Positions 1 to 13,559 of a stretch of DNA of 64,000 bases are shown piece by piece. This stretch comes from Myxococcales bacterium. Its GTDB lineage: Bacteria > Myxococcota_A > Polyangia > Polyangiales > DASUME01. The stretch spans positions 8,160,001 through 8,224,000 of the forward strand of contig JASGJH010000001.1 in the NCBI GenBank assembly GCA_047601445.1, written 5' to 3'. Position 1 is the stretch's first letter, and every line of letters starts with the position of its first letter. The notes beneath the pieces were generated by a model. That model did no database searches, had not been told where the DNA came from, and worked only from the letters and a program-made list of their open reading frames with translations. Made by a program: the position numbers and the translations under genes.

Positions 1-2
1 GC

Positions 3-632
3 AAGCACCGCAACGGACGCGGCTCGCTGCCCGAGGTGGAGGCGCACGCCCAGGAAATGGCGCTGCGTTTGCTCCAGGCCCTGCCGGGTGTCCGCGATGT
101 GCTCGCCACCGACGTGCAGGCTGCACTCTCGGGCGATCCCGCCGCCTGTACCGCGGAGGAAGTGATCCTCAGCTACCCGGGCGTCCAGGCCATCACCAGC
201 CACCGCATCGCTCACCAGCTGTATCGCCTCGGGGTACCGATGCTGCCGCGCATGATGAGCGAGGTCACCCACTCGCGGACCGGCATCGATATCCACCCGG
301 GCGCCACCATCGGCCCGAGCTTCTTCATCGATCACGGGACGGGGCTCGTGATGGGCGAGACCACGGTCATCGGGAGCGGAGCGAAGCTCTACCAGGGCGT
401 TACCCTGGGGGCGCTGAGCGTGCGCGGAGGCCGCGACGAGGCGGGTTCTGTCAAACGACATCCCACGCTCGAAGACGACGTCACCATCTATGCCGGCGCC
501 ACCATCCTCGGCGGCGAGACCGTGATCGGCCGTGGCAGCGTCATCGGCGGCAACGTGTGGCTCACCCACAGCGTGGGTCCTGGCACCACCGTGGTCCTCG
601 ACAAGCCCAGTCTCCTGTTCAAGCAGAGCTGA
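3..632 (+). CDS. cysE: Serine O-acetyltransferase (EpsC/CysE type), 5'-truncated by window edge
   Basis: GDPAA..EVILSYPG, HRIAH, TGIDIHPGATIG..FFIDHGTG, KRHPT motifs; frame open to window start. Confidence 0.88.
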   Translation, partial: KHRNGRGSLPEVEAHAQEMALRLLQALPGVRDVLATDVQAALSGDPAACTAEEVILSYPGVQAITSHRIAHQLYRLGVPMLPRMMSEVTHSRTGIDIHPGATIGPSFFIDHGTGLVMGETTVIGSGAKLYQGVTLGALSVRGGRDEAGSVKRHPTLEDDVTIYAGATILGGETVIGRGSVIGGNVWLTHSVGPGTTVVLDKPSLLFKQS

Positions 633-926
633 GGGGACGGTTTCGCTTCTTCGCTTTTGCCCTCCAAGCCCGCCTTCTCCCAGCCTCGGGCGTTCCAGGG
701 GCATTACCTTGCTCCCGAAAGAAGAGCCGTGCGATCCTCGCGGGAAGCCTCGGGGTGGCGCTTCGGTCGCGGGTAGTCCGCGTCGAGCCTCATCCGGCGG
801 ATCCCGATGTCGGTGTCCTCCCCACGCCCGCAAAGTTTTCCAGGTGCTCTGGGTTTTTGCGATGCCGCGTGTCCGGTCTTTACGCGGAAGTAGCAATGAT
901 TCTCGGAATTAACCGGCAAACAGCGG

Positions 927-942
927 TGGTACGTGGCTTGCA
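927..942 (+). promoter_or_regulatory. Putative sigma54 (-24/-12) promoter
   Basis: TGGTACG-TGGC-TTGCA matches TGGYACG-N4-TTGCW; GG(928-929) and GC(940-941) are exactly 10 nt apart; about 65 nt upstream of ATG 1008. Confidence 0.65.
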
Positions 943-1007
943 AAGCGGTTTCCAAAACTCGCGAACGGGCCGCTAGACCCGTGGGCTCCGTGCTCGGAGG
1001 CGCTTTC

Positions 1008-4000
1008 ATGCTGTGCAGGAAGTGGTTGTCTTACAGGTGCTTGTCGCCTCTCTGGATGCTGCTGCTCCTGATCACGGCCGCCGCCTGCACCGACAACGAG
1101 CGGGGCGACAGCTGGCAAGGCGTCTGCATCGACCAGGACGGCGACGGCTTCGGCGTGGAGTGCGCCAACGGCCCCGACTGTAATGACCACGACGCCAACC
1201 TGGCCGCCGAGTGCAGCTGCACGCTGCCGGCCACGGGCTGCGCCTGCGAACCGAACGCCAAGCCCATCGATTGCGTGGTCTCGCGCGAGCACACCGGCAG
1301 CGGCAGCCTCGTGTGCCGCACGGGTTTGATGTATTGCCAGGACCAGGTCTGGACCGAGTGCGTGGGTACGCGCAGCTTCGAGGTCCCCGCGCCCTCGGTC
1401 GTGTTGTCCGAGCTCGGCGCCGCCAAGATCCAGCAGGACGCTGCGCCCCGCATCTGCGATGTGTGCCAGCCCGACTGCTATCGCGTCGACGATCCGCTGA
1501 CCCGCACGGACGCGGGCGTCCCGAACAGCACCGACACCGTGTACGGTCCTGGCGGCGGCATCACCTTGCCCAGCGTGAAGAACGACGCGGGCGTCAAGGA
1601 TCCCGACGTCGTCGTCCCCGATCCGCCTTGCGTGCCAGGCAACGTCACCGACAAGGATTGCGACGGCATCCCCGACAAGCTCGACCCTTATCCGGATTCG
1701 ATTCCGTTCAACTCGGACCACAGCACCATCTTCATGGACCTCGCCCCCGGCGAGTCCGATTCGGCCACCTTCGAGGTCAAGTTCTACCTGAACACCGCCG
1801 ACATCTACTTCCTCATCGACCAGACGGGCTCGATGGCGGAAGAGCAGAAGGCGCTGTTCGACTCGCTGAAGAACGGCAACTACCTGGACGATCCCGCCAC
1901 CACCGCCGACGAATCGGTGGGCGTGGAGTGCGCCGACCGCAACTTCGACGGCAAGCCGGACGCCACCCTCAAGACGCAGGGTATCGCCGGCAACATCGCC
2001 TGCTTGATCCGCAGCTCGGGCCTTGGCCTCGGTTGGTACCGCGAGGTGCCGTACTCCCAGCCAGACGACTACGGCATCAAGTACTCGTACCCGAACTTCG
2101 AGGCCTTCGAGCATCGCCAGGACATTAGCGAAGACGAGAGCCTGACGCTGAAGGCGCTCGACCTGCTCTACACGCGCGGTAACCAGAACTGGGCTGAGTC
2201 CGCAGGCATCGCACTGCACGCCGTCGCGAGTGGCGGGCCCATCTACATGGGCTGGGATCGCCCGGGCATCCCAGCCAAGATCTGCCCAGCAGGGCGCGTG
2301 GGCTACCCGTGCTTCCGCAGCGAGGCCGTGCCGGTGGTCATCCTGATCACCGACGCGCCGATGATGAATGGTCCGCCGACCACCGCCGGCAACCTCGGTA
2401 CCGAGACCAGCACTTACAACAACAAGCAGCCCTACAATTATCAGCCGGTCGGTCTGGCACACACCAACTTCAGCAGCGACAAGCAGTACCACCTCGTCGA
2501 CCAAACCAACGAGACCTACATCAACGCGTACGACGTCGGGACCATCGACAACAGCTTCAAGACCTACTCGGGCGACACGCGCGGCATGGTCGCGGATCTG
2601 CGCTCGGACAACCTGGGCATGAAGTGCTCGCTGTGGCCCACCGACTCGACCTCCGCGGCGAGCCCTGGTCTCCCCGATGCAGTCTTCAAGTTCAAGGTGG
2701 AGACCAACAAGCTGCTCACGGTCTCGACGCGTGGCACGCGTTTCAAGCCGGTGCTCGCCATCGTCCCGGTACCCACCAGCACGAGCGCCGACCCGCCGCC
2801 CGTGACCAGCATCTCCGCGTCGAGCAACAACTACCTTGCCCCCAAGGACCTAGGCACTGTCACCGAGGCCATCAACATCCAGGTCAACGGAAACTCGACC
2901 AGCCTCACCCAGAGCTTGCCGGTCGCCGCTGCGCCTGCGTGCTTCGCGGGCTCGGTGCCGTCGAACAACGCTTCGTCGGCCTACTACAAGTTCACGGCCA
3001 CCAAGAGCGTCAACGACGTGCTCTTCACCGCGAGCGGCAGCGACTTCGATGCGATGCTCGGCTTGTACGCCGGTGCGCCAGTGGCGCTCGAGAGCTACCC
3101 GATCACGGGCAACACGAACGACTACTTCTACATGTTCAATGTGCCCTCCACCAACAGCCCCACCGGCAACTCCGCGCTGAACGGCCGCATGGTGTGGCTC
3201 TCGGGTGGTGACACGTCGGCGACTGCCATCCGTCCCGACTTCCCGGCCACCGGCTTCTACAACGTGGACAACTCGGACACGAGCTGCAACTCGGCCACTG
3301 GCTCCGCAGACGACGCTGTGATCGACTTCTCGCTCGCAGCAAAGACGACGATCCGCGTCGAGACCACCTCGAGCACCGACTCGAACGCCGCGGCGGCCTT
3401 CGACAACATCATCGCGCTCATCGAGCGCCCCGCCACCTTGTCGCCCATCATCACTGACGTGGCTGGCAACGACAACTCGTCCCTGGCCTACACCATCCAG
3501 AGCACCTCTGTTCCGCCCAAGACCGACGAGGGTTCCTGGGCGGAGTACCATGGCTACACGGCCAACTACAACACGGCGAACAGCCCCGTCACCATGAAGG
3601 CCGACGACGTGAGCGCGACCGCCATGTACGACTCGAGCGTGGCCGCCACCTCAACGTGCAGCACCATCTCGGGCAAGACCGGCTACCACGACGTCGTCTA
3701 CAAGTTCAACGTCACCCAGGAAGACGACTACGACATCGACACGCTGGGCTCGGGCTTCACCACGTTCCTGGCCCTCCACAACCGCGTTCCGTCCGCTGCG
3801 CGCACGGTGGCCTCCAACAACACCCTTGCCAGCGCCAGCGCCGGCCAAGACACCGGCATCACGTTCGACGGCACCGTGTCCAAGTTGACCGTCACGGGCT
3901 CGACCTCGACCTCTCCCACCACGTCTTACTCGCCCGACAAGGTGCAGGTGGTGGGCGACGTCAACGGCTGCCAGACCGCCAACAAGACGTCTCCCTCCCT

Positions 4001-6143
4001 CGTCTACAAGTTCGTCGTCACCGGTGCCACGCGCTCCTTCGCCTTCAACCGCTCCACCAGCTGGACGGGCGTCGTGTCGCTCTTCTCCAACCCGCTGCCT
4101 GCCAACTCGGGTGCGCAGGGTCTCTGGTGCCGCACGGCCACCGACTTCAGTGTCGACCTCGCGCCTGGCACCTACTACGTGATGATCCACGGCAAGACCA
4201 CCACCGATAAGGGCACCTTCACGCTCAACATCACCGACTCGAGCGTGCAAAGCGGTCTGCTCGCCTGCGACATGGGTTCGCACCCGAATGCCAGGGGCAA
4301 GAACTCCTTGTTGCGTCGCCACCTCACGGTCGGCACCTACTACATCGTGGTCAAGGGCAACAGCACGGACCTGGCGAGCTCGCGCTACGTCATGAGCATC
4401 CGCCGCACGCAGCCGCCGCCTGTCATCGCGTGTAACTGGAAGGGCGTGGGCACCAACCGCAGCGCTGTCACGAGAACCCTGGATCCGGGCAACTACTCGG
4501 TCATCGTGCGTGGCCGTGCCGATGGCGACGTCGGTGGCAAATACGGCGTGTTGATCACCGACGTCAGCGCCACGCCGCTGGCTTGTCACAACGAAGCCGG
4601 CCTGAGCATCAACGGCGTCCCCACCGCGTCCAAGGCGTTCCGCGCCAACCTCGTCGCGGGGACGACGTACTACATGGTGCTGCGCGGAAACAATATCAAC
4701 AAGGGCAGCGGCGACGGTCCTCATACCATCGTCATGAGCTCCGGCGTGGGCTCCAGCACCTGCGCCTACGACAACACGACCTACTCGGCCACAGGCGATA
4801 CCTCGTTCTCGCTGGGAGCTGCCGAGATCACGCAGACCTTTACGCCTGGCGAATACTACGCCGTGCTCAAGGGGAAGGGTGACACGGGTGCTCCACCCAC
4901 GGCCGACAAGGGCCGCGGTTGGTACCAGTTCAGCGTGGGCGACCCCACCTTGATCGTCCCCGAGCAGACCAACACGCTGCCTACCTGGACCCTGCCCGGC
5001 GGCGGCATCAAGGGCGAGCTCACGGCCAACAACATCCGCGTCATCACGGTGGCCTCCGTCATCAAGGATGGCGCCGTGTGTAACGGCGGTAGCTGCAGCT
5101 CGGGCAGCACCGATCAGAACAAGGCGCTTACCGATCAGGGCGACGAGCTCGCGCGTGCCACGGGCGCCTTGAGCCTCGACAGCAAGCCCCTGCGCTTCAA
5201 CATCAAGAACGACGGTACCGGCATGGGTTACGCGGTGGTGCAGGCCGTGAACCAGCTGGCCAAGAACATCGCGATGGACGTGTCGGTGCGCTTCGTGCCC
5301 GACCCACAGAAGCCCACGCCGCCCCAACAGTTCAAGTTCACCGCGCGCGCCATCAACGTGCCGGGTGACCTGTGCGACGGTCCGGTCGACACCGACGGCG
5401 ACAAGATCTTGGACACGCACCTCAAGTGCGCGCCGGGCGCCGTGCCTCGCTTCGAGGTGACCTTCACCAACCCGCCCGTTTCCAGCGGCCAAAACGTGAA
5501 GGCCAATCCCGCTGACCCCAAGGGCGGCTACAACATGCGCATCGAGCTAATCGGCGACGCCAAGTACGTGGTCGACAAGATCCCTGTCTACATCATTCCG
5601 GAAGACGTGGTGCCGAACCCGCCGCCCGTCATCTACCAGCCCACGGGTACCTACTATCAGGATGTCAGCTCTTCGGGCTGCGTCGGCACCGAGCGCCCGG
5701 ATTGGCAGGCGTTGTTCTGGAACGCCTCGCTGCCCGCGGGCACGTCCATCGAATGGCGCGTATGCGGTGGAAATACCGTGGCCGATCTCAACACCTGCGC
5801 GTCGAGCGGCAACTGGCAGCTGGCGGCCAGGGTCGATTCGGGCGGTACGTGCCAGGACTCGGTGGAGTGTCCCAACGGCTATTGCGACACAGCCGGCATC
5901 TGCGAGTACCCGCGTGGTCCCGCCTGCACGGCCAAGTCGGATTGCGGTGTGAACGGTAACTGCATCGCCAACCAGTGCATCTGGACGGCGAACCCCATCG
6001 ACCTTAACCCTGCCGTGATGAATGGCTTCAACGGACTGAGCAAGATGCGTGTCCAGGTTCGCTTGAACGCCAATGGAGATCGCAGCAAGGCTCCCGCCAT
6101 TACGGACTTCCGGCTCAACTACGTTTGCGCGCCCGGCGAGTAG
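1008..6143 (+). CDS. Large Cys-rich surface lipoprotein: integrin-beta-like vWA domain interrupted by nested PPC-like beta-domains
   Basis: GGAGG RBS 996-1000; lipobox-like ITAAAC; CIDQDGDGFG..C..DCND motif; MIDAS DIYFLIDQTGSM (~1800-1835), VVILITDAP (~2334-2360); vWA C-part ELTANNIRVITV..LARATG (~5016-5165); PPC-like motifs between. Confidence 0.8.
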   Translation: MLCRKWLSYRCLSPLWMLLLLITAAACTDNERGDSWQGVCIDQDGDGFGVECANGPDCNDHDANLAAECSCTLPATGCACEPNAKPIDCVVSREHTGSGSLVCRTGLMYCQDQVWTECVGTRSFEVPAPSVVLSELGAAKIQQDAAPRICDVCQPDCYRVDDPLTRTDAGVPNSTDTVYGPGGGITLPSVKNDAGVKDPDVVVPDPPCVPGNVTDKDCDGIPDKLDPYPDSIPFNSDHSTIFMDLAPGESDSATFEVKFYLNTADIYFLIDQTGSMAEEQKALFDSLKNGNYLDDPATTADESVGVECADRNFDGKPDATLKTQGIAGNIACLIRSSGLGLGWYREVPYSQPDDYGIKYSYPNFEAFEHRQDISEDESLTLKALDLLYTRGNQNWAESAGIALHAVASGGPIYMGWDRPGIPAKICPAGRVGYPCFRSEAVPVVILITDAPMMNGPPTTAGNLGTETSTYNNKQPYNYQPVGLAHTNFSSDKQYHLVDQTNETYINAYDVGTIDNSFKTYSGDTRGMVADLRSDNLGMKCSLWPTDSTSAASPGLPDAVFKFKVETNKLLTVSTRGTRFKPVLAIVPVPTSTSADPPPVTSISASSNNYLAPKDLGTVTEAINIQVNGNSTSLTQSLPVAAAPACFAGSVPSNNASSAYYKFTATKSVNDVLFTASGSDFDAMLGLYAGAPVALESYPITGNTNDYFYMFNVPSTNSPTGNSALNGRMVWLSGGDTSATAIRPDFPATGFYNVDNSDTSCNSATGSADDAVIDFSLAAKTTIRVETTSSTDSNAAAAFDNIIALIERPATLSPIITDVAGNDNSSLAYTIQSTSVPPKTDEGSWAEYHGYTANYNTANSPVTMKADDVSATAMYDSSVAATSTCSTISGKTGYHDVVYKFNVTQEDDYDIDTLGSGFTTFLALHNRVPSAARTVASNNTLASASAGQDTGITFDGTVSKLTVTGSTSTSPTTSYSPDKVQVVGDVNGCQTANKTSPSLVYKFVVTGATRSFAFNRSTSWTGVVSLFSNPLPANSGAQGLWCRTATDFSVDLAPGTYYVMIHGKTTTDKGTFTLNITDSSVQSGLLACDMGSHPNARGKNSLLRRHLTVGTYYIVVKGNSTDLASSRYVMSIRRTQPPPVIACNWKGVGTNRSAVTRTLDPGNYSVIVRGRADGDVGGKYGVLITDVSATPLACHNEAGLSINGVPTASKAFRANLVAGTTYYMVLRGNNINKGSGDGPHTIVMSSGVGSSTCAYDNTTYSATGDTSFSLGAAEITQTFTPGEYYAVLKGKGDTGAPPTADKGRGWYQFSVGDPTLIVPEQTNTLPTWTLPGGGIKGELTANNIRVITVASVIKDGAVCNGGSCSSGSTDQNKALTDQGDELARATGALSLDSKPLRFNIKNDGTGMGYAVVQAVNQLAKNIAMDVSVRFVPDPQKPTPPQQFKFTARAINVPGDLCDGPVDTDGDKILDTHLKCAPGAVPRFEVTFTNPPVSSGQNVKANPADPKGGYNMRIELIGDAKYVVDKIPVYIIPEDVVPNPPPVIYQPTGTYYQDVSSSGCVGTERPDWQALFWNASLPAGTSIEWRVCGGNTVADLNTCASSGNWQLAARVDSGGTCQDSVECPNGYCDTAGICEYPRGPACTAKSDCGVNGNCIANQCIWTANPIDLNPAVMNGFNGLSKMRVQVRLNANGDRSKAPAITDFRLNYVCAPGE

Positions 6144-6189: not shown

Positions 6190-9100
6190 ATGCAGACGCG
6201 TCGTCATCGACACTTTTGGATCCTTGCCCTGGCGTTGTTCGCAGCGTCACCGGTGTACGCGCAGGAAGACCCGGACGCCGACGGCGACGGTGTTCCGGAT
6301 GAGAATGAGAGCCCAGGGGACACGGACGGCGACGGCAAGCTCGACGTCAACGACAGCGACGACGACGGCGACGGCATCCCCACGGCAGAAGAGCTCGTTT
6401 CTGGCAACGCGGACGGCGACGAATGGCCTGACTTCCGGGACCCGGATGACGACAACGATCATGTGCTCACCAAGAACGAGCTCGGCATCGGAGGCTGGCA
6501 GACCCCGCTCAACACGGACGGCATCGGCGCACCCGATTACCTGGACGATGATGACGATGACGACGGCGCGCCCACGGCAGAGGAAGTCTGGGACGCGGAG
6601 TGGGATCCGGACCGACAGATCTACGATCCGCTGACGCAGGACACGGACAAGGACGGCATCAAGGACTTCCGCGATGCCGACGACGACGGCGACACCATCC
6701 CGAGCGAGCTCGAGACCGAGTACTTCGTTTCGGGGACCGCGTATCCGATCCCGGACACCGACAACTATCCGGGTGACCAGGACAACGACAACCAACTCAA
6801 CGCGGTCGATCGCGACGACGACAACGACGGCATCCTGACCAAGGACGAGCTGGGACCGAACGGGTACACCAATCCGCGCAACACCGACGGCACCGGTCTC
6901 CCGGACTATCTCGACGACGACGACGACGACGACGGAGAGTCGACCGCGGTGGAGCTCTCCACCAACCCGGAGCCAGACTTCAACGGGAATGGCATCCCGG
7001 ACTATCTCGACCCGGAAGCCAAGGGTTCCCAGGCGGATCCGCCGCCTCTTTTGGTGCCCGGTGCCGATGCCGACGACGACGGCGTCAGCAACGAGCTCGA
7101 GGACCTGAACCGCGACGGTAGATACTGGAACGACAACACGGACGGCGACAAGCTCGCGGACTACGTCGATGACGACGACGACAACGATGGCATCAAGACC
7201 ATCTACGAGAAGGGTGATCCCGCGAATCCTCCGGATAGCGACGGCGACAAGATCCCGGACTACCTCGACCCCGACGATGACGGCGATGGCGTGCTCACCA
7301 AGGACGAGCACCCCGACGCCAACGGCGACGGCGATCCCAGCGACTATCTGTCCACGGCCAGCGCCGAGCCCAACTATCTAAACCCGGACGACGACGACGA
7401 CGGCAAGTCCACCTTCGACGAGCGCCCTGGCGGCCTCGACGTCGACAGTGATCACGATGGGATCCCGGACTACCTCGACGAAGACGATCTGCCGAGCAGT
7501 GGTGGTCCCACCGACGGCGACCTCGACACGGACGGCGACGGCATCCCCGACAAGATGGAGATGCCCGGTGGCGTGGCCGTCGACACGGACGGCGACGGCA
7601 TCCCCGACTACCTCGATCCCGACGACGACGGCGACGGCATCCCCACCAAGGACGAGGGGAAGGGCGGCGGCGTGGACACCGACGGCGACGGCATCCCGGA
7701 CTACTTGGATCCGGATGCAGACGGCGACGGCATCCCCGACAAGATGGAGGGCACCGGCGACAGCGATGGCGACGGCGTTCCCGACTACCTCGACGACAAC
7801 GGTGCGGGTATGGCCGACGCTGGAACCTCCGGCGGCGGTTCGGACGCGGGCGGCGGCGGTAGCGGTAACCCACCGCTCGGCGAGAAGCCCCAGACCAAGA
7901 AGTCCGACAGCTGCAGCGTCAGCGCGCCCGCGAGCGCAACGTTCCCTGCCTTGAGCATGTGGAGCCTCGTGCTGGCCGGTGTGGTGTTCGCGGCGCGACG
8001 TCGCCGTGCACGCAGCGCGCTGGCCATGGTCGCCGGTGCGCTGCTCATGCAAGCCTGCGGCGATGACACCGAGCCCCCCTCCGAGGGCCTCTTGGGCGGC
8101 GACGGCGGACACCACGAGCCAGGGCACGACGCTGGCTCGCAGCCCGCGGACAGTGGCATGCCCGAGTCGGACGCCGCGACCGACGCCGGGCCAACGAGCT
8201 CGGTCACGCCCGAGTGCACGATAGAGGACGGCTCCTTCCAGGTGGAACTGCCCGCCGTGGAGGGCTCCCCTTGGGCTTCCACGCTGCAGGGAGACACCTT
8301 GCACCTCGCCTACCTTGGGCGCAGCTGCGGCACGGCCGAGAACGTCACCGGCACGGGCGTCCGCTATCAGACCTTCCGCGTCGCTGGCGGCACCGTCGCC
8401 GACATCGACAACATGGACGGCGACTTCTGTCTCACCACACTCCACCCGGCGGTGTCGGCCGACAGCGGCGGCGCCACGGTGTTCTACAGCTCCAATCTCG
8501 AAAACGGCATGGAGCTCTACAGCCACAGCGCGAAGCCGACCACCGGTCGCAACCGCCTCACCTTCGACGCCGACTCCGGAGGCGACCAGGAGGTCCTCAC
8601 CGTGGCCGAGACCTTCGGCGACGCCGCCTTGCTCGCGTACGCGAATCGCCAGGGCAAGCAAGGGCCCTTCCAGATCGTCACCGCGCGCCCGAGCAACTTC
8701 TCGGAGAACGAGATCGCGCCCGCCTCGCTCGACTACCGGCCCACGCAGCTCGCGCTGCTCGGCCTCAAGAACGCCGGCGCGCTGGCCTGGGTGAGCAGCG
8801 GCGACACGCAAGGTTCCATCGTGCTGCAGCCGCTGGCTGCCAACGGCAAGGCCTCCGGTGCATCGGTCGTGCTCAGCGATCAGGTCGGGAGCTACTCCGG
8901 CGTCAGCTTCGGCGCGCTGCCGGATCAAAGCGCTGCGGCCGTGGTGTACAGCGTCGCCCTTGCGGGCAACACGCACGAGTTGCGCTTCCGTGAGCTCGGT
9001 GCGGATGGCGCGCCGACGGCTGACGAGGTCAAGCTCACCAGTGGCAACCGCGACGCCTCGGGCGTGTCGCTGGCCCCGTTCGCCGCCGGCTACGTGGCCG

Positions 9101-9318
9101 CGTTTCGCTGGCGCCGTGCTGACGGCCCGCCCGTGATTCGCTTGATGTTCATCAACAAGCGCGGCGGCATCGGCGGCGAGCGCACACTGAGCGAAGCCGC
9201 GCTAACGGGCGAGGATACTCGTGTGCACGCGCTGCCAGATGGTCGCTTGCTCGTGCTCTGGAGCGACAGCACCGGCACGGGCAGCACACTGCATGTCGTG
9301 CGCGCCAACTGCATCTGA
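6190..9318 (+). CDS. Secreted Asp-rich Ca-binding (TSP3-like DxDxDGxPD) repeat protein with internal MYXO-CTERM-like motif and C-terminal beta-rich domain
   Basis: GGAG RBS 6181; Sec signal ending VYA-Q; many D(T/S)DxDG(I/V)PD and DYLDxDDD repeats; SCSV..hydrophobic..RRRR at ~7909-8010; LMQAC lipobox at 8056. Confidence 0.8.
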   Translation: MQTRRHRHFWILALALFAASPVYAQEDPDADGDGVPDENESPGDTDGDGKLDVNDSDDDGDGIPTAEELVSGNADGDEWPDFRDPDDDNDHVLTKNELGIGGWQTPLNTDGIGAPDYLDDDDDDDGAPTAEEVWDAEWDPDRQIYDPLTQDTDKDGIKDFRDADDDGDTIPSELETEYFVSGTAYPIPDTDNYPGDQDNDNQLNAVDRDDDNDGILTKDELGPNGYTNPRNTDGTGLPDYLDDDDDDDGESTAVELSTNPEPDFNGNGIPDYLDPEAKGSQADPPPLLVPGADADDDGVSNELEDLNRDGRYWNDNTDGDKLADYVDDDDDNDGIKTIYEKGDPANPPDSDGDKIPDYLDPDDDGDGVLTKDEHPDANGDGDPSDYLSTASAEPNYLNPDDDDDGKSTFDERPGGLDVDSDHDGIPDYLDEDDLPSSGGPTDGDLDTDGDGIPDKMEMPGGVAVDTDGDGIPDYLDPDDDGDGIPTKDEGKGGGVDTDGDGIPDYLDPDADGDGIPDKMEGTGDSDGDGVPDYLDDNGAGMADAGTSGGGSDAGGGGSGNPPLGEKPQTKKSDSCSVSAPASATFPALSMWSLVLAGVVFAARRRRARSALAMVAGALLMQACGDDTEPPSEGLLGGDGGHHEPGHDAGSQPADSGMPESDAATDAGPTSSVTPECTIEDGSFQVELPAVEGSPWASTLQGDTLHLAYLGRSCGTAENVTGTGVRYQTFRVAGGTVADIDNMDGDFCLTTLHPAVSADSGGATVFYSSNLENGMELYSHSAKPTTGRNRLTFDADSGGDQEVLTVAETFGDAALLAYANRQGKQGPFQIVTARPSNFSENEIAPASLDYRPTQLALLGLKNAGALAWVSSGDTQGSIVLQPLAANGKASGASVVLSDQVGSYSGVSFGALPDQSAAAVVYSVALAGNTHELRFRELGADGAPTADEVKLTSGNRDASGVSLAPFAAGYVAAFRWRRADGPPVIRLMFINKRGGIGGERTLSEAALTGEDTRVHALPDGRLLVLWSDSTGTGSTLHVVRANCI

Positions 9319-9450: not shown

Positions 9451-10356
9451 ATGAACAGCACGGCCCCCAGCCAGAACTTCGTCGTTCGCTATTTCCATCT
9501 CCAGGCTTGGCCCTTCTGGGCAGCTCACGTGGGCATGATCTACGGGCTGTTCTCGCTCGGCTTCTCCTGGAGCGGGCTCGCGCTGGCCATCGCGCTCTAC
9601 TACGCCCGGATGTTCTTCATCACCGGCGTCTATCACCGCTACTTCTCGCACCGCTCCTACAAGACCTCGCGCTGGTTCCAGTTCGTGATCGGTGCGCTCG
9701 GCGGCATGAGCGTGCAGAAAGGCGCGCTCTGGTGGGCCGGCCATCACCGCCACCACCACAAGTTCTCCGACCAGCCCGAAGACCTACACTCCCCGCGCGA
9801 GCAGGGCCTGTGGGAGTCGCACGTGGGTTGGATCGTGAGCGTCCAACACAACGAAACCCGCTACGACCTCATCCGCGACTTCGCCAAGTTCCCCGAGCTC
9901 GTGTGGCTCAACAAGTGGCACCTGGTGCCGGTCGCCGTGTACGCGGGTGCGCTCTACGCCATCGGCGGCATGTTCGCCTTCTTCTGGGGCTTCGTGGTGT
10001 CCACGGTACTGCTGTGGCACGGCACGTTCACCATCAACTCGCTCTCTCACGTGTTCGGCAAGCGTCGCTACGAGACCACCGACGACTCTCGCAACAACTG
10101 GTTCCTCGCGATGCTCACCATGGGTGAGGGCTGGCACAACAACCATCACCACTACCAGAGCACGGCCAACCAGGGCTTCTACTGGTGGGAGATCGATCTC
10201 AGCTATTACATCCTGTGCGCGCTGGCCAAGGTCGGCCTCGTGTGGGATCTGCGCAAGCCTCCCCAGTGGGTCCTCGACGCGGGTCGCGGCAAGCCTGCGG
10301 CAGCCCCTGTCCCGTCCGACGAAGGCCTGGCTGGCCTGGTCGATCCGGCCGAGTAA
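9451..10356 (+). CDS. Delta-9-type acyl-lipid/acyl-CoA fatty acid desaturase
   Basis: His boxes HRYFSH, HHRHHH, GEGWHNNHH; INSLSH; WWEIDL. Confidence 0.93.
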   Translation: MNSTAPSQNFVVRYFHLQAWPFWAAHVGMIYGLFSLGFSWSGLALAIALYYARMFFITGVYHRYFSHRSYKTSRWFQFVIGALGGMSVQKGALWWAGHHRHHHKFSDQPEDLHSPREQGLWESHVGWIVSVQHNETRYDLIRDFAKFPELVWLNKWHLVPVAVYAGALYAIGGMFAFFWGFVVSTVLLWHGTFTINSLSHVFGKRRYETTDDSRNNWFLAMLTMGEGWHNNHHHYQSTANQGFYWWEIDLSYYILCALAKVGLVWDLRKPPQWVLDAGRGKPAAAPVPSDEGLAGLVDPAE

Positions 10357-10416
10357 GCATCCTGCATCGCTCGGCGCGGTTCGACTGCAGCGCGAACTGA
10401 ACGCTGTTCAAGATCT

Positions 10417-10455
10417 AAAAAGAGGCGCGATCACCCCGATCGTGCGCTTTTTTTT
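10417..10455. terminator. Bidirectional intrinsic terminator between convergent desaturase and MarR genes
   Basis: AAAAAG-AGGCGCGATC-ACCCC-GATCGTGCGC-TTTTTTTT. Confidence 0.75.
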
Positions 10456-10475
10456 ATGAGAACCTTCTCAGGTTC

Positions 10476-11012
10476 TCAGGCGTCGTCGTGACCCGAACCC
10501 AGGGCATCCGGGTGGAAAGCACTGCGGGCCACCGCACAAGGCGGCTCACGCAGCGTCCCCAGGAGGCGGTTCAGGGTCTTCAGATCTTCCTGGCTCATGT
10601 GCCCAAAACGGGCCTTTAGCGCCTCGGCCAGCGGACCGCGTACGGCCTCCACCTTGGACCGACCAGCATCGGTCAGATACGTGCGAACCACGCGGCGGTC
10701 GTCGCAGCACCGCTCGCGCCGGATCATCCCTGCTTGCTCAAGGCGATCCAGCAGACGCGTGATGTCCGGCACGCGGTTCAAGAGCTGCTCCGCAATAGCC
10801 TGACAGGCTACTCCGCCGCCGCACGAGGCCAGTGCCTTGAGCACGTTGTACTGCTGGGGCGTGAGGTCGAAACGCTGGAAGAACTTGGTCAGTTCTGACC
10901 ACAGCGAGTCGTACGCACGCAACAGGCTTGCGAGCACGTCTTGGCCCGCATCGCACTGTGTATCTAGTGTGGGATGTTCGGTCACCACGTTTGGGATTGT
11001 TGAGGCAGTCAT
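10476..11012 (-). CDS. MarR family transcriptional regulator (Cys-rich)
   Basis: LTPQQYNVL, VPDITRLLDRLE, DRRVV..LT..G winged-helix motifs. Confidence 0.92.
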   Translation of the reverse strand: MTASTIPNVVTEHPTLDTQCDAGQDVLASLLRAYDSLWSELTKFFQRFDLTPQQYNVLKALASCGGGVACQAIAEQLLNRVPDITRLLDRLEQAGMIRRERCCDDRRVVRTYLTDAGRSKVEAVRGPLAEALKARFGHMSQEDLKTLNRLLGTLREPPCAVARSAFHPDALGSGHDDA

Positions 11013-11178
11013 GGCTCTGTCAACGACCGTTTGGGTGCTTTCTTATCAACATACATTTGCTCGCACCGAAGCCCCACCATATCTTGTTAAGACGAGCTTC
11101 TTGTAGCTTCCGTGCGAAGAGCCGCAGCTCCGGCTGACCAACTACTTCGCGCGCCTTGTGAAAGTACCCTAGTTTGAG

Positions 11179-11862
11179 GTGACGATGAGGTTCCGGGTCC
11201 TGTTGGTGGACGACGACGAGGCCGCGCTCGCGCTCGCGGCGGCTCTCGCTGATGCTCCTTACGAAGTGCTGACTGCTCGCTCGGCGGCGGAAGCGCTCAA
11301 GGTGCTGGAGCGCGAAGATGTGCAGGTCGTGGTGTCCGACGAATGGATGCCTGGGATGCGCGGCGTGGAGCTGCTTGCCCAGGTCGCCAAGGAATACCCC
11401 TACATTGTGCGTATTCTGCTTACCGGCGATCCCCAGCTGGACGCGGCGGTGCGGGCGATCAACGAAGGCGAAATCTTTCGCTTCCTGACCAAGCCCTGCT
11501 CGCCGACCACGCTGGACTCGGTGATTCGCGAGGCGCTGATCCGGCAGTCCCGCGGGAAGCTTCAGGAAGACCTGATGCGCGTGGCAGGACAGGGCATCGA
11601 GCACCTGCAGCGCATCGAAGGCCTTTCGTCGGGCGGCGGAGCGGGCGCGGGTCTGGACGTTGGAGGTCCGGAGATCACGCTCGATCAGCTCAGCAAGCGC
11701 GAGCGAGAGATCGTGGAAACCCTGCTCGGGGAAGGCAGCGTCACCGGCGTCGCCACGAACCTCCACATCAGCCTCCACACGGTGCGAAACCACCTCAAGT
11801 CCATCTTCCGCAAGCTCGGCGTCCACTCCCAGGTCGAGCTGGTCACCAAACTCAAGCGCTGA
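11179..11862 (+). CDS. Response regulator with C-terminal LuxR/NarL HTH
   Basis: VLLVDDD, VVSDEWMPG, ILLTG, FLTKP; LSKREREIV..ISLHTVRNHLKSIFRKLGV. Confidence 0.92.
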   Translation: MTMRFRVLLVDDDEAALALAAALADAPYEVLTARSAAEALKVLEREDVQVVVSDEWMPGMRGVELLAQVAKEYPYIVRILLTGDPQLDAAVRAINEGEIFRFLTKPCSPTTLDSVIREALIRQSRGKLQEDLMRVAGQGIEHLQRIEGLSSGGGAGAGLDVGGPEITLDQLSKREREIVETLLGEGSVTGVATNLHISLHTVRNHLKSIFRKLGVHSQVELVTKLKR

Positions 11863-11901
11863 TCCTGCAAGGTTCCTTGCGGGTGTCCAGCCGAGTCGCA
11901 G

Positions 11902-12474
11902 TCAGCCCTGGAGCTGACTGCGATTTTCGGTGTGTTGCTGTTCGCGGAGGGAGGCGTCGCGCAGTCCACGCGCCTCCACGCCGCTGGCCAGCAGGGCGGC
12001 TTCCAGCTTGTGCCGGCCGCGGTGGAGCAGCACCCGCAGGTGGCCGCGGGTCACGCCCATGCGTGCGCTCGCCTCGTCCCGATCCATGTCCTGCACGTCG
12101 CAGAGCGTGATCGCGGTACGCTCGAGCTCGCTGAGCTCGGTCATCGCCCGGGAGGCAATTTCGGCGGCTTCATAGGCGTCCAGGCGGTCTTCGGGGGCGT
12201 TCTGCTCCCAGGCCACCTTCTCCTCCTCGAGCAGCTCCGACGGGCGCTCGCGGCGGAAGCGGTCCGCGATGCGGCGGCGCAAGATACTCACCAGCCAGGT
12301 GCGCAAGCTCGACCGGCCCTCGAAGCTTGGCACCGTCTTGAGAGCGCTGATCCAGGTGTCCTGGACCAGATCTTCAGCTTCCTCGCGCTGGCGCACCGCG
12401 CGGTAAGCAAAAGCGAAAAGACCAGGACTGAGTTCCTGGATGGTGGCCGCATTGATGATCGCCATACTGGCCAT
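11902..12474 (-). CDS. ECF-type RNA polymerase sigma factor
   Basis: AEDLVQDTW, FEGRSSLRTWL (region 2); LLHRGR (region 4). Confidence 0.92.
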   Translation of the reverse strand: MASMAIINAATIQELSPGLFAFAYRAVRQREEAEDLVQDTWISALKTVPSFEGRSSLRTWLVSILRRRIADRFRRERPSELLEEEKVAWEQNAPEDRLDAYEAAEIASRAMTELSELERTAITLCDVQDMDRDEASARMGVTRGHLRVLLHRGRHKLEAALLASGVEARGLRDASLREQQHTENRSQLQG

Positions 12475-12787
12475 GGTCTGGGTTCTCCGAGTTGCTTGTT
12501 GTCACGACTATGTGGCCGACGATTATTCGTGTCAACGGATATTGTGCGGACGAAAGAACCGTGTCCCCCCTCCAGGTACACGCGCGCGTAGCCGGCGTAC
12601 CCCCCCGCGAGCAATTTCGGGGGCCTGGATGTGCGCACTGCTGACGCCCTGCGGACCAAGGCCGTGTGGTATAGGAGCCGTCCGCCGGGGGAACAGGGCC
12701 CTCCATGCCCTACAAAGCGTGGTGGGCGTCGGCAGGAGGCATCCTGCCGGCCGTGACTGGGCAGTACTTCGGTCCCACGCGGCACGT

Positions 12788-12882
12788 GAGAGCGCGTGAG
12801 AGACGCGTGATCAGAGAGCGCGTGAAGGACGCGCTACCGGAGAGCGCGAGAGGGACGCGGCGGGGCAACAAGCGAGGACGCG
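12788..12882 (+). repeat. Imperfect tandem array GAGAGCGCG-N5-GACGCG, period 26 bp, three copies plus a partial
   Basis: GAGAGCGCG at 12788, 12814, 12840; GACGCG at 12802, 12828, 12854, 12877. Confidence 0.8.
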
Positions 12883-12920
12883 CCGACAGGGCGCGCCAGC
12901 ATCACAAGGAGGCACGGCAC

Positions 12921-13559
12921 ATGGGCTTGCACATTGGCAGCATCGCGCCTGATTTCACCGCAGAGTCGAGTGAAGGGACCATCAAGTTCCACGACTACTT
13001 GGGCAAGAGCTGGGGCGTTCTGTTCTCGCATCCCAAGGACTTCACGCCCGTTTGCACGACCGAACTTGGCTACGCCGCCAAGCGCAAGGCTGACTTCGAG
13101 AAGCGCAACGTGAAGGTGATCGCCCTCTCGGTCGACCCCGTGGATAGTCATCGTGGCTGGATCTCCGACATCGAAGAGACCCAGGGCGCCAAGATGAACT
13201 ACCCGATCATCGCGGACAGCGATCGCAAGGTCTCGACGCTCTACGACATGATCCATCCAGAAGCGAACGACACGTTCACCGTACGCTCGGTGTTCTTCGT
13301 CGATCCCAACAAGAAGATCCGCGCGATGATCACGTACCCGGCCAGCACGGGCCGCAATTTCGACGAAATCCTGCGCGTGATCGACTCCCTGCAGCTCACC
13401 GATGGCTACTCCGTGGCGACCCCGGTGAACTGGAAGGACGGCGAGGACTGCGTGATTGTCCCGTCGCTCCAGGACCCCGAGGTGTTGAAGCAGAAGTTCC
13501 CCAAGGGCTACAAGGTCGTCCGGCCCTATTTGCGCCTCACACCTCAACCCAATAAATGA
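12921..13559 (+). CDS. 1-Cys peroxiredoxin (Prx6 family)
   Basis: AGGAGG RBS before ATG 12921; FSHPKDFTPVCTTELG, YPASTGRNFDEILRVIDSLQL. Confidence 0.96.
   Translation: MGLHIGSIAPDFTAESSEGTIKFHDYLGKSWGVLFSHPKDFTPVCTTELGYAAKRKADFEKRNVKVIALSVDPVDSHRGWISDIEETQGAKMNYPIIADSDRKVSTLYDMIHPEANDTFTVRSVFFVDPNKKIRAMITYPASTGRNFDEILRVIDSLQLTDGYSVATPVNWKDGEDCVIVPSLQDPEVLKQKFPKGYKVVRPYLRLTPQPNK

Follow-up and report, generated by a model that had tools for sequence, protein, structure and literature searches.

The question raised by this locus is how one polypeptide comes to carry five N-terminal halves of PPC-like domains in a row, followed by five C-terminal halves, and what such an arrangement could do for the cell. 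The gene lies in a stretch of 64,000 nucleotides from a Myxococcales bacterium (assembly GCA_047601445.1, contig JASGJH010000001.1, positions 8,160,001 to 8,224,000), hereafter called the window. A preliminary description had proposed that the five domains sit inside one another within a split vWA domain, and the motifs it named are all found at their places, in the order it gave and with one Cys per half, in the uninterrupted open reading frame 1008-6143, for which the database gene call has a start 16 codons downstream (1695 aa). We read the parts of this gene as follows.

1008..6143, plus strand: whole open reading frame, 1711 aa from ATG; probable beta-integrin-like lipoprotein bearing the nested stalk
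1008..1088, plus strand: signal peptide ending in the lipobox-like LITAAAC (Cys27, residues 21-27), from sequence
1089..1712, plus strand: Cys-rich N-terminal region with isolated DxDxDG-like motifs, from sequence; conserved in alignments A1 and A3
1713..2372, plus strand: hybrid-like lead-in strand and N-terminal vWA flank (beta-I-like), from the family profile against integrin beta-3 and the fold match
2502..2768, plus strand: N1, N-half of the outermost PPC-like domain (predicted partner the last C-half), from HMM and one-level relatives; outside the directly read model pairs
2817..3074, plus strand: N2 (predicted partner the fourth C-half), from a single-domain fold match with Z 7.0 and the two-level relative P0013
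3111..3428, plus strand: N3 (predicted partner the third C-half), from 4 of the 25 best contact pairs and three-level relatives
3462..3785, plus strand: N4 (predicted partner the second C-half), from 19 of the 25 best contact pairs and fold matches with Z 9.1
3810..4238, plus strand: N5 with the first C-half, predicted innermost, uninterrupted tip domain, from the match to the ColG collagen-binding domain and 2 of the 25 best contact pairs
4254..4406, plus strand: second C-half, predicted to complete N4, from contact pairs and fold matches
4419..4565, plus strand: third C-half, predicted to complete N3, from contact pairs and three-level relatives
4572..4742, plus strand: fourth C-half, predicted to complete N2, from fold match and relatives
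4752..4946, plus strand: fifth C-half, predicted to complete N1, from relatives and by elimination among the model contacts
4971..5279, plus strand: C-terminal flank completing the vWA fold, from integrin beta I alignments and the uninterrupted paralog of the same genome
5280..6140, plus strand: conserved beta-rich segment, probably the rest of a hybrid-like domain, then a Cys-rich C-terminal tail, from our own HMMs H2 and T

The vWA strand VVILITDAP is found at nt 2334 and ELTANNIRVITV at nt 5016. The N-halves carry the motifs DAVFKF (nt 2676), AYYKF (2979), DAVIDF (3312), DVVYKF (3690) and LVYKF (3999), and the C-halves LWC (4122), LAC (4260), IAC (4425), LAC (4578) and STC (4755), respectively. 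The stretch from residue 436 to 1357 contains exactly ten Cys, and each half has one of them (C540, C645, C760, C884 and C988 in the N-halves; C1041, C1087, C1142, C1193 and C1252 in the C-halves), and across the family exactly one Cys occurs in 354 of 361 N-halves and in 322 of 356 C-halves. Profile HMMs of the two kinds of half, seeded from the query units and iterated on 171 proteins, together with four HMMs of flanking segments, read the query as vWA flank, N N N N N C C C C C, vWA flank, with domain E-values of 5.5e-24 to 1.9e-7 for the halves, which are partly circular because the query units sat in the seed. The units are 14-32% (N-halves) and 19-34% (C-halves) identical in pairwise comparison, BLAST of the query against itself gave no internal repeat match, and from their sequences the units are judged to be old. 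Scans of the protein with Pfam and NCBIfam matched no family, since linear HMMs cannot see split domains. The signal peptide is the sole hydrophobic segment (the top five 19-residue hydropathy windows begin at residues 7-11), so that by hydropathy an integrin-type transmembrane helix with cytoplasmic tail is absent; a loose lipobox pattern is present in 46 of the 58 nested members, and the query is probably a lipoprotein.

The first part of the question is whether the vWA domain is indeed completed after the insert. Two AF2 models were made, one of residues 255-1431 on a 25-row alignment (pLDDT 80.2, pTM 0.57) and one of the insert alone, residues 485-1318, on a 27-row alignment (pLDDT 81.0, pTM 0.64); because the same 25-27-row alignments served for the two-chain model described below, these models are not fully independent of it. 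The top seven fold matches of the longer model are all integrin beta or Pactolus I domains (Z 19.1-20.7, the next match having Z 16.6), among them integrin beta-7 (Z 20.7, rmsd 3.8, 223 aligned residues, range 1..1173) and the beta-6 head (Z 20.3, rmsd 2.9, 215 of 248). As the integrin beta I alignments place 212-223 residues across model positions 1..1173, that is from the first through the last part of the model, the segment past nt 4970 completes the vWA domain, and the Rossmann-type I-like fold is formed from both flanks, as had been claimed for the split vWA.

Within the insert, N5 and the first C-half (model residues 447..593) match the collagen-binding domain s3b of ColG (Z 11.9, rmsd 2.2, 109 aligned) and the collagenase PPC domain 5sv5 (Z 9.7), so that the innermost domain has a PPC/collagen-binding beta-sandwich fold. 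N4 with the second C-half (337-341..650-654) matches related sandwiches (Z 9.1, 112-117 aligned), and the range 137..765, corresponding to residues 621-1249 and to N2 with the fourth C-half, is matched by one single domain at a middling Z of 7.0 (103 aligned). PF04151 was not matched at its gathering score of 25.9 bits by the query or by its innermost domain; the relatives P0012, P0022 and P0052 score 52.6, 43.7 and 38.3 bits, respectively.

When the N-arm and the C-arm were given to a second program as two chains, a score of 0.85 was reached, while the best of three controls had 0.00; of the solved pairs 116 in 157 come up to the score mark applied, of the mismatched pairs 2 in 215, figures that are rough with an own alignment. 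Contacts agreed to at least 90% between runs, with a partner pLDDT of at least 79. Halves of one fold can pass such a test by their likeness to solved structures, and the order of pairing is the informative part. Among the 25 best contact pairs, 19 join N4 to the second C-half, 4 N3 to the third and 2 N5 to the first; all 25 fit nesting and 21 exclude a parallel order. N1 and N2 appear in the interface list, yet are absent from the 25 best pairs. Thus, the two predictors support nested pairing for four levels, and the fifth, N1 with the last C-half, is supported by the relatives. The same pairing order could also arise between molecules, the N-arm of one closing on the C-arm of another to give dimers or a mesh, and this reading draws on the two-chain model, in which the arms fold together although they are not joined, as well as on the element swapping described for the recursive HABAS domains of Si3 (PMC11515920). 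However, single-chain models satisfy all levels, N5 is directly linked to the first C-half, and the intact tandem domains that the relatives P0003, P0006 and P0012 carry at the tip fit a closed hairpin, and we therefore consider pairing between chains improbable.

How far the arrangement extends beyond the query was followed in a family set of 171 proteins including the query, of which 126 have both vWA flanks and 45, being fragments or distant, were left out. Halves are present in 95 of the complete members and missing from 31. If each N-half is read as an opening and each C-half as a closing bracket, 92 of the 95 strings are balanced and well formed: 27 NC, 4 N2C2, 9 N3C3, 5 N4C4, 12 N5C5, 4 N6C6 and 17 N7C7, besides 10 tandem strings (e.g. 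NCNC) and 4 mixed ones (e.g. NNNNNCNCCCCC). The remaining three (P0052, P0061, P0077) balance once their gaps are read by eye, a judgement that we keep outside the count. The N5C5 string thus recurs in 12 of 95 members, the query counted, and is therefore neither a product of chance nor an assembly artefact. The latter had been considered separately and was ruled out, as the source genome is a single 9.5-Mb contig with a single copy of the gene and the string occurs also in other sources. The only further member in this genome is a distant paralog that has the same vWA domain, uninterrupted and with merely a short loop at the insertion site.

Depth hence varies from 0 to 7 levels on the same head among complete relatives, and in shallower relatives the inner levels are missing together, as a single block. 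In 79 genome loci, with titles mostly of Polyangiales, Sandaracinaceae and Myxococcales, 17 of 18 complete genes with halves are balanced and 73 are without halves. Within the genus of the window, three genomes (G002, G004, G007) have one level and two (G001, G005) have three. The G007 locus (L023) has the same surroundings as the window, where cysE precedes the gene and the propeller-like and desaturase genes follow it, and stalk depth therefore changes at one chromosomal locus.

Balance of the halves by itself fits nested and parallel pairing alike. The five closest loci are more telling: in all three one-level genes the N-half is nearest to N1 (38-43% versus 15-34% to the others) and the C-half to the last C-half (47-53%), and in both three-level genes the halves map to N1, N2, N3 and the last three C-halves. 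Shallow genes keep the outermost N-halves and the last C-halves, and therefore the inner N-halves go with the first C-halves. A mirror test on 51 pure nests with 258 levels, which asks how closely the likeness among N-halves is followed by that among their assigned partners, gave r = 0.46 for nested and 0.26 for parallel pairing against 0.21 ± 0.018 for shuffled levels (maximum 0.27 of 300), and for pairs of different depth 0.36, 0.11 and 0.156 ± 0.021, respectively, while N-to-C couplings learned on 125 intact domains gave, in 203 outer-level pairs, r = 0.177 nested and 0.039 parallel against 0.032 ± 0.021 shuffled (maximum 0.071 of 40), all of these contrasts being inflated by kinship among the members. 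Cruder orthology counts are noisy (last-to-last C-half 233 of 526, first-to-first 71), and for one-domain members the best C-half match is a middle half in 76 of 161 cases, the last in 64 and the first in 21.

The halves could alternatively be independent small domains, or be paired in parallel order, and the balanced counts taken alone would fit the parallel version, to which the noise of the crude orthology counts may be added. However, contacts and fold ranges are nested, the parallel order scores at or below shuffled levels in the mirror test of different depths and close to shuffled in the covariation, shallower relatives lose inner N-halves together with first C-halves, and independent domains would not need the balance that is seen nearly throughout. 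We hence regard these two readings as very hard to uphold and the nested architecture, judged from models and sequence comparison, as nearly certain. The pairing N1 to N5 and C5 to C1 given in the preliminary description agrees with contacts, fold ranges, relatives, mirror and covariation tests, and none of the three outcomes that it had named as speaking against it, namely independent halves, parallel order or an incomplete vWA domain, was found. The integrin-beta-I-like character of the host domain, the variation of depth within the family and the conserved neighbouring gene for a propeller-like lipoprotein come in addition to what it had noticed.

Some members appear to go far deeper. In genome G011, the open frame on contig C1059 counts 7554 codons and continues past the contig end, with 27 and 21 N-halves in two overlapping pieces and just 3 C-halves, and on contig C13 a fragment of 3069 aa, likewise open, shows 28 C-halves and 3 N-type matches ahead of the vWA flank. 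P0067 reads as (c c b c) nine times, with 33 C-halves and 9 middle parts, and its missing N-arm would imply 24 to 33 open levels. This string fits a putative second site at which the domain is split, ahead of the conserved Cys; by eye, P0052 and three close relatives have, outside two ordinary levels, a lone first part for which a middle part and a C-half further on provide the closure. A stricter parser with three parts (first strand part, middle, C-half) was set aside, as only 46 of the 102 complete proteins could be parsed with it, the query not among them, because its first-part model is insensitive. The search for giant members returned 2 proteins, one labelled partial, and among the complete members seen the depth stays at about 9 levels or less, which is why greater depth is read from the fragments; these would imply a depth of 24 or more.

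What kind of head carries this stalk? A profile of the shallow members matches residues 92-226 of integrin beta-3 with an E-value of 2e-7, covering the lead-in strand and aligning DtTgsm with DLSYSM and ngadgpE with RNRDAPE, while phmmer searches of the PDB sequences with P0013 and P0108 gave nothing significant, so that the integrins are reached by the family profile only. The likeness to an integrin beta head thus consists of the best fold matches together with the profile match on the lead-in strand, the DxSxS loop and RNRDAPE. MIDAS-type residues in the query are D271-x-T273-x-S275, E397 and D449, aligned in part to the beta-3 motifs, with Thr in place of the first Ser, the metal site being putative. 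In contrast to an integrin beta subunit, the query has DxTxS, an 830-residue stalk in a loop and no transmembrane helix or tail. From a myxobacterium as well is CglD of Myxococcus xanthus, a beta-integrin-like surface lipoprotein that provides traction in gliding; it is Cys-rich and has a beta-I-type vWA domain with MIDAS (10.1101/2023.10.19.562135), which the query, a probable lipoprotein with MIDAS-type residues, resembles. However, residues 40-430 of CglD form a COMP-like DxDxDG array, the counterpart of which sits in the gene next to the query, and CglD is not known to carry a nested insert (10.1101/2023.10.19.562135). In the query chain itself such a repeat region was looked for, and isolated motifs without a Pfam TSP3 match were found.

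The position of the insert, which begins about 45 residues past D449, leads to the question of function. In line with the preliminary description, the same nested fold could work mainly in a mechanical way, as a lever or shock absorber in which load on the tip would travel down both arms into the loop after the MIDAS-type Asp449 and so tune the MIDAS, since the strict DxT/SxS pattern is kept in 47 of 58 nested members, the related CglD gives traction in gliding (10.1101/2023.10.19.562135), and two arms with a disulfide at each level would be expected to resist pulling. However, the motif is kept equally in members without a stalk (26 of 31), and a depth that runs from 0 to 7 or more on the same head suits a spacer better, as does the former. 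The cargo points in the same direction. A scan of 19 proteins, picked for having gaps, recognized RCC1-like plus C-type lectin modules in the innermost loop of P0062, P0078, P0082 and L042, a C-type lectin in P0065 and LamG in P0045; further relatives have LamG (P0029) or PA14 (P0014) at the tip or side, and LamG, lectin, PA14 or DUF11 modules hang between levels. In RTX adhesins it is a split beta-sandwich from which a ligand-binding domain is projected away from the adhesin axis (PMC12077191). Because the cargo modules match this projection principle, we prefer the spacer and regard the lever as rather unlikely. At the tip of the query itself no extra ligand-binding module was recognized, and the display role is therefore borrowed from the relatives.

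The explanation that we favor for the query, at a probability of about 0.72 for the mechanism as a whole, is a lipid-anchored, beta-integrin-like surface adhesin of Polyangiales-type (soil) myxobacteria with a nested, length-tunable spacer stalk, for which pairing order, intact vWA and variable depth are supported by the models and by comparison of sequences, and the rest is inferred. The stalk would start from one loop of the I-like vWA domain, the one that links the TDAP strand to the helix preceding NNIRVITV, and each PPC-like beta-sandwich would be inserted into the same loop of the sandwich below. On its way outward the chain would lay down the first halves and on its return the second halves in reverse order, so that two arms close every level, probably pinned by one inter-arm disulfide. 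As a spacer of tunable length the stalk would lift its tip, which is the innermost domain in the query and a lectin, LamG or RCC1 module in relatives, off the cell surface; such a display stalk is the likeliest predicted role. Folding would have to zip from tip to base, because an outer level cannot close before its C-half is made. Depth may change when a single contiguous block of DNA at the centre is gained or lost or, alternatively, through a double crossover that is offset by one level in both arms, and in either case the halves would stay balanced.

The gene downstream of the query bears on a possible partner.

6190..9318, plus strand: neighbouring gene with DxDxDG repeats, a myxosortase-type tail, a second lipobox-like stretch and a 368-aa terminal domain, from sequence

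The 368-aa domain (window 8212-9315) has periodicities of 51-52 and 105 residues (z about 3) and a terminal Cys, and is probably a beta-propeller. No family was matched in PDB and Pfam; in the ESM Atlas it falls to unnamed clusters (0.91-0.92) and to BNR-repeat clusters (0.83-0.85), which we take as a lead only. Where the vWA gene has the family tail, a homolog, in most loci a stand-alone lipoprotein, is present in 18 of 25 loci, and elsewhere in 2 of 54. We hypothesize that the query and this putative partner form an integrin-like alpha/beta pair. The loop that bears the stalk is presumably the one that faces the propeller of the alpha subunit in integrins, a position that could argue for or against such a pair.

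Out-and-back nesting of unlike domains is known from flagellins and pilus adhesins, and long adhesins normally gain reach via tandem repeats, which change by simple slippage. Known arrays of PPC domains are tandem as well, and although the innermost domain of the query matches the PPC/clostridial collagen-binding fold (PF04151; ColG s3b, PliG), without collagen binding being implied, four of its five domains are discontinuous. The preliminary description knew of no five-fold recursive insertion; this does not hold, as in the Si3 of cyanobacterial RNA polymerase beta-prime HABAS/SBHM domains are recursively inserted over six levels (PMC13114784; PMC11515920), a case highlighted in a survey of 2.7 million ECOD domains (PMC13114784). 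In Si3 as in the query family, a single domain family supplies both host and insert over several levels, its copies sitting inside one another, but Si3 is described as an insertion in an intracellular enzyme with bifurcating nodes, swapped elements and 8-10 domains (PMC13114784; PMC11515920), whereas the family is made of secreted beta-sandwiches, mostly linear and inserted at one loop, with a depth of 0-7 in complete members and 24 or more as implied by fragments. In the RTX adhesins, split domains are single and stand among tandem extenders, with one two-level case of beta-roll, vWA and insert (PMC12077191), while in the query family the split domains are the extender. The word "nested" is absent from the main text of that paper. 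The query has an N-terminal signal peptide instead of RTX repeats or a type I secretion signal, for which Pfam and NCBIfam gave no match. A literature search that covered main texts, mostly outside the subscription journals, found nothing on this family or on a nested extender of variable depth. Recursive insertion itself is thus already described, and nesting of variable depth as an extender appears to be the new part.

It is tempting, at somewhat less than even odds, to go further and see here a distinct class of repeat proteins: a fibrillar extender that would grow by nesting, with a bracket grammar of two bracket kinds (two split sites per domain), more than 20 levels in giants of many thousand residues, lectin-type modules at tip and sides and last-in-first-out folding, mounted on an alpha/beta-integrin-like pair with the neighbouring propeller lipoprotein. 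The family seems to gain reach by recursion, for which two distant gene segments must stay matched and outer domains are left waiting unfolded, up to hundreds or thousands of residues. The natural series of 0-7 levels on one head offers a test of the limits that contact order sets on folding and secretion, and the family would equally allow tests of how nested architectures evolve and of load bearing by a two-armed, disulfide-pinned stalk. Moreover, a bacterial integrin-like pair can be put to a direct test, given the conserved propeller-like neighbour.

The gene directly downstream of the nested vWA gene is a possible partner of it, and both lie among ordinary neighbours:

Window 6190-9318, (+) strand: fusion-like ORF that reads as two proteins in one frame
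Window 3-632 and 9451-13559: flanking genes, ordinary neighbours

The first part of the fusion-like ORF consists of DxDxDG repeats and ends in a myxosortase-type tail with RRRR, followed in the second part by another lipobox-like stretch (LLMQAC) and then a propeller-like domain. The same DxDxDG/propeller-like fusion is present at locus L026, and the propeller-like lipoprotein is unfused in most of the other loci. The flanking genes include serine acetyltransferase-like and fatty-acid desaturase genes, and their order is unchanged at locus L030. MarR-like, response-regulator, ECF-sigma-like and peroxiredoxin-like genes, assigned by eye, are also found among them.

The genome of the window (G000) also encodes a paralog of the vWA protein:

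G000:C1:4449225-4454021 (locus L019): paralog sharing the beta-I-like vWA, without insert

Here, VWD and TSP3-type matches precede the beta-I-like vWA. Each of 11 further loci (L065, L072, L075, L076, L077, L088, L094, L096, L097, L098, and L103) contains two or three adjacent long frames that bear the vWA signature, an arrangement that suggests tandem clusters of stalk-less paralogs.

In genome G011, open frames at G011:C1059 (L013, L014) and G011:C13 (L016, which contains an N gap) may be opposite ends of a single giant gene of the nested type, and modules of C-type-lectin-like and other kinds lie between their levels.

The half models also weakly match two more G000 genes, G000:C1:8697455-8699104 and 8123049-8124491, in which the halves alternate in ordinary order. 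The family protein P0077 carries an additional intact PPC-like domain at another point of the vWA N-flank, besides the usual site. Growth by nesting occurs alongside tandem growth: P0003, P0006, P0012, P0061, and P0118 contain intact tandem domains, either at the nest tip or inserted straight into the loop of the vWA.
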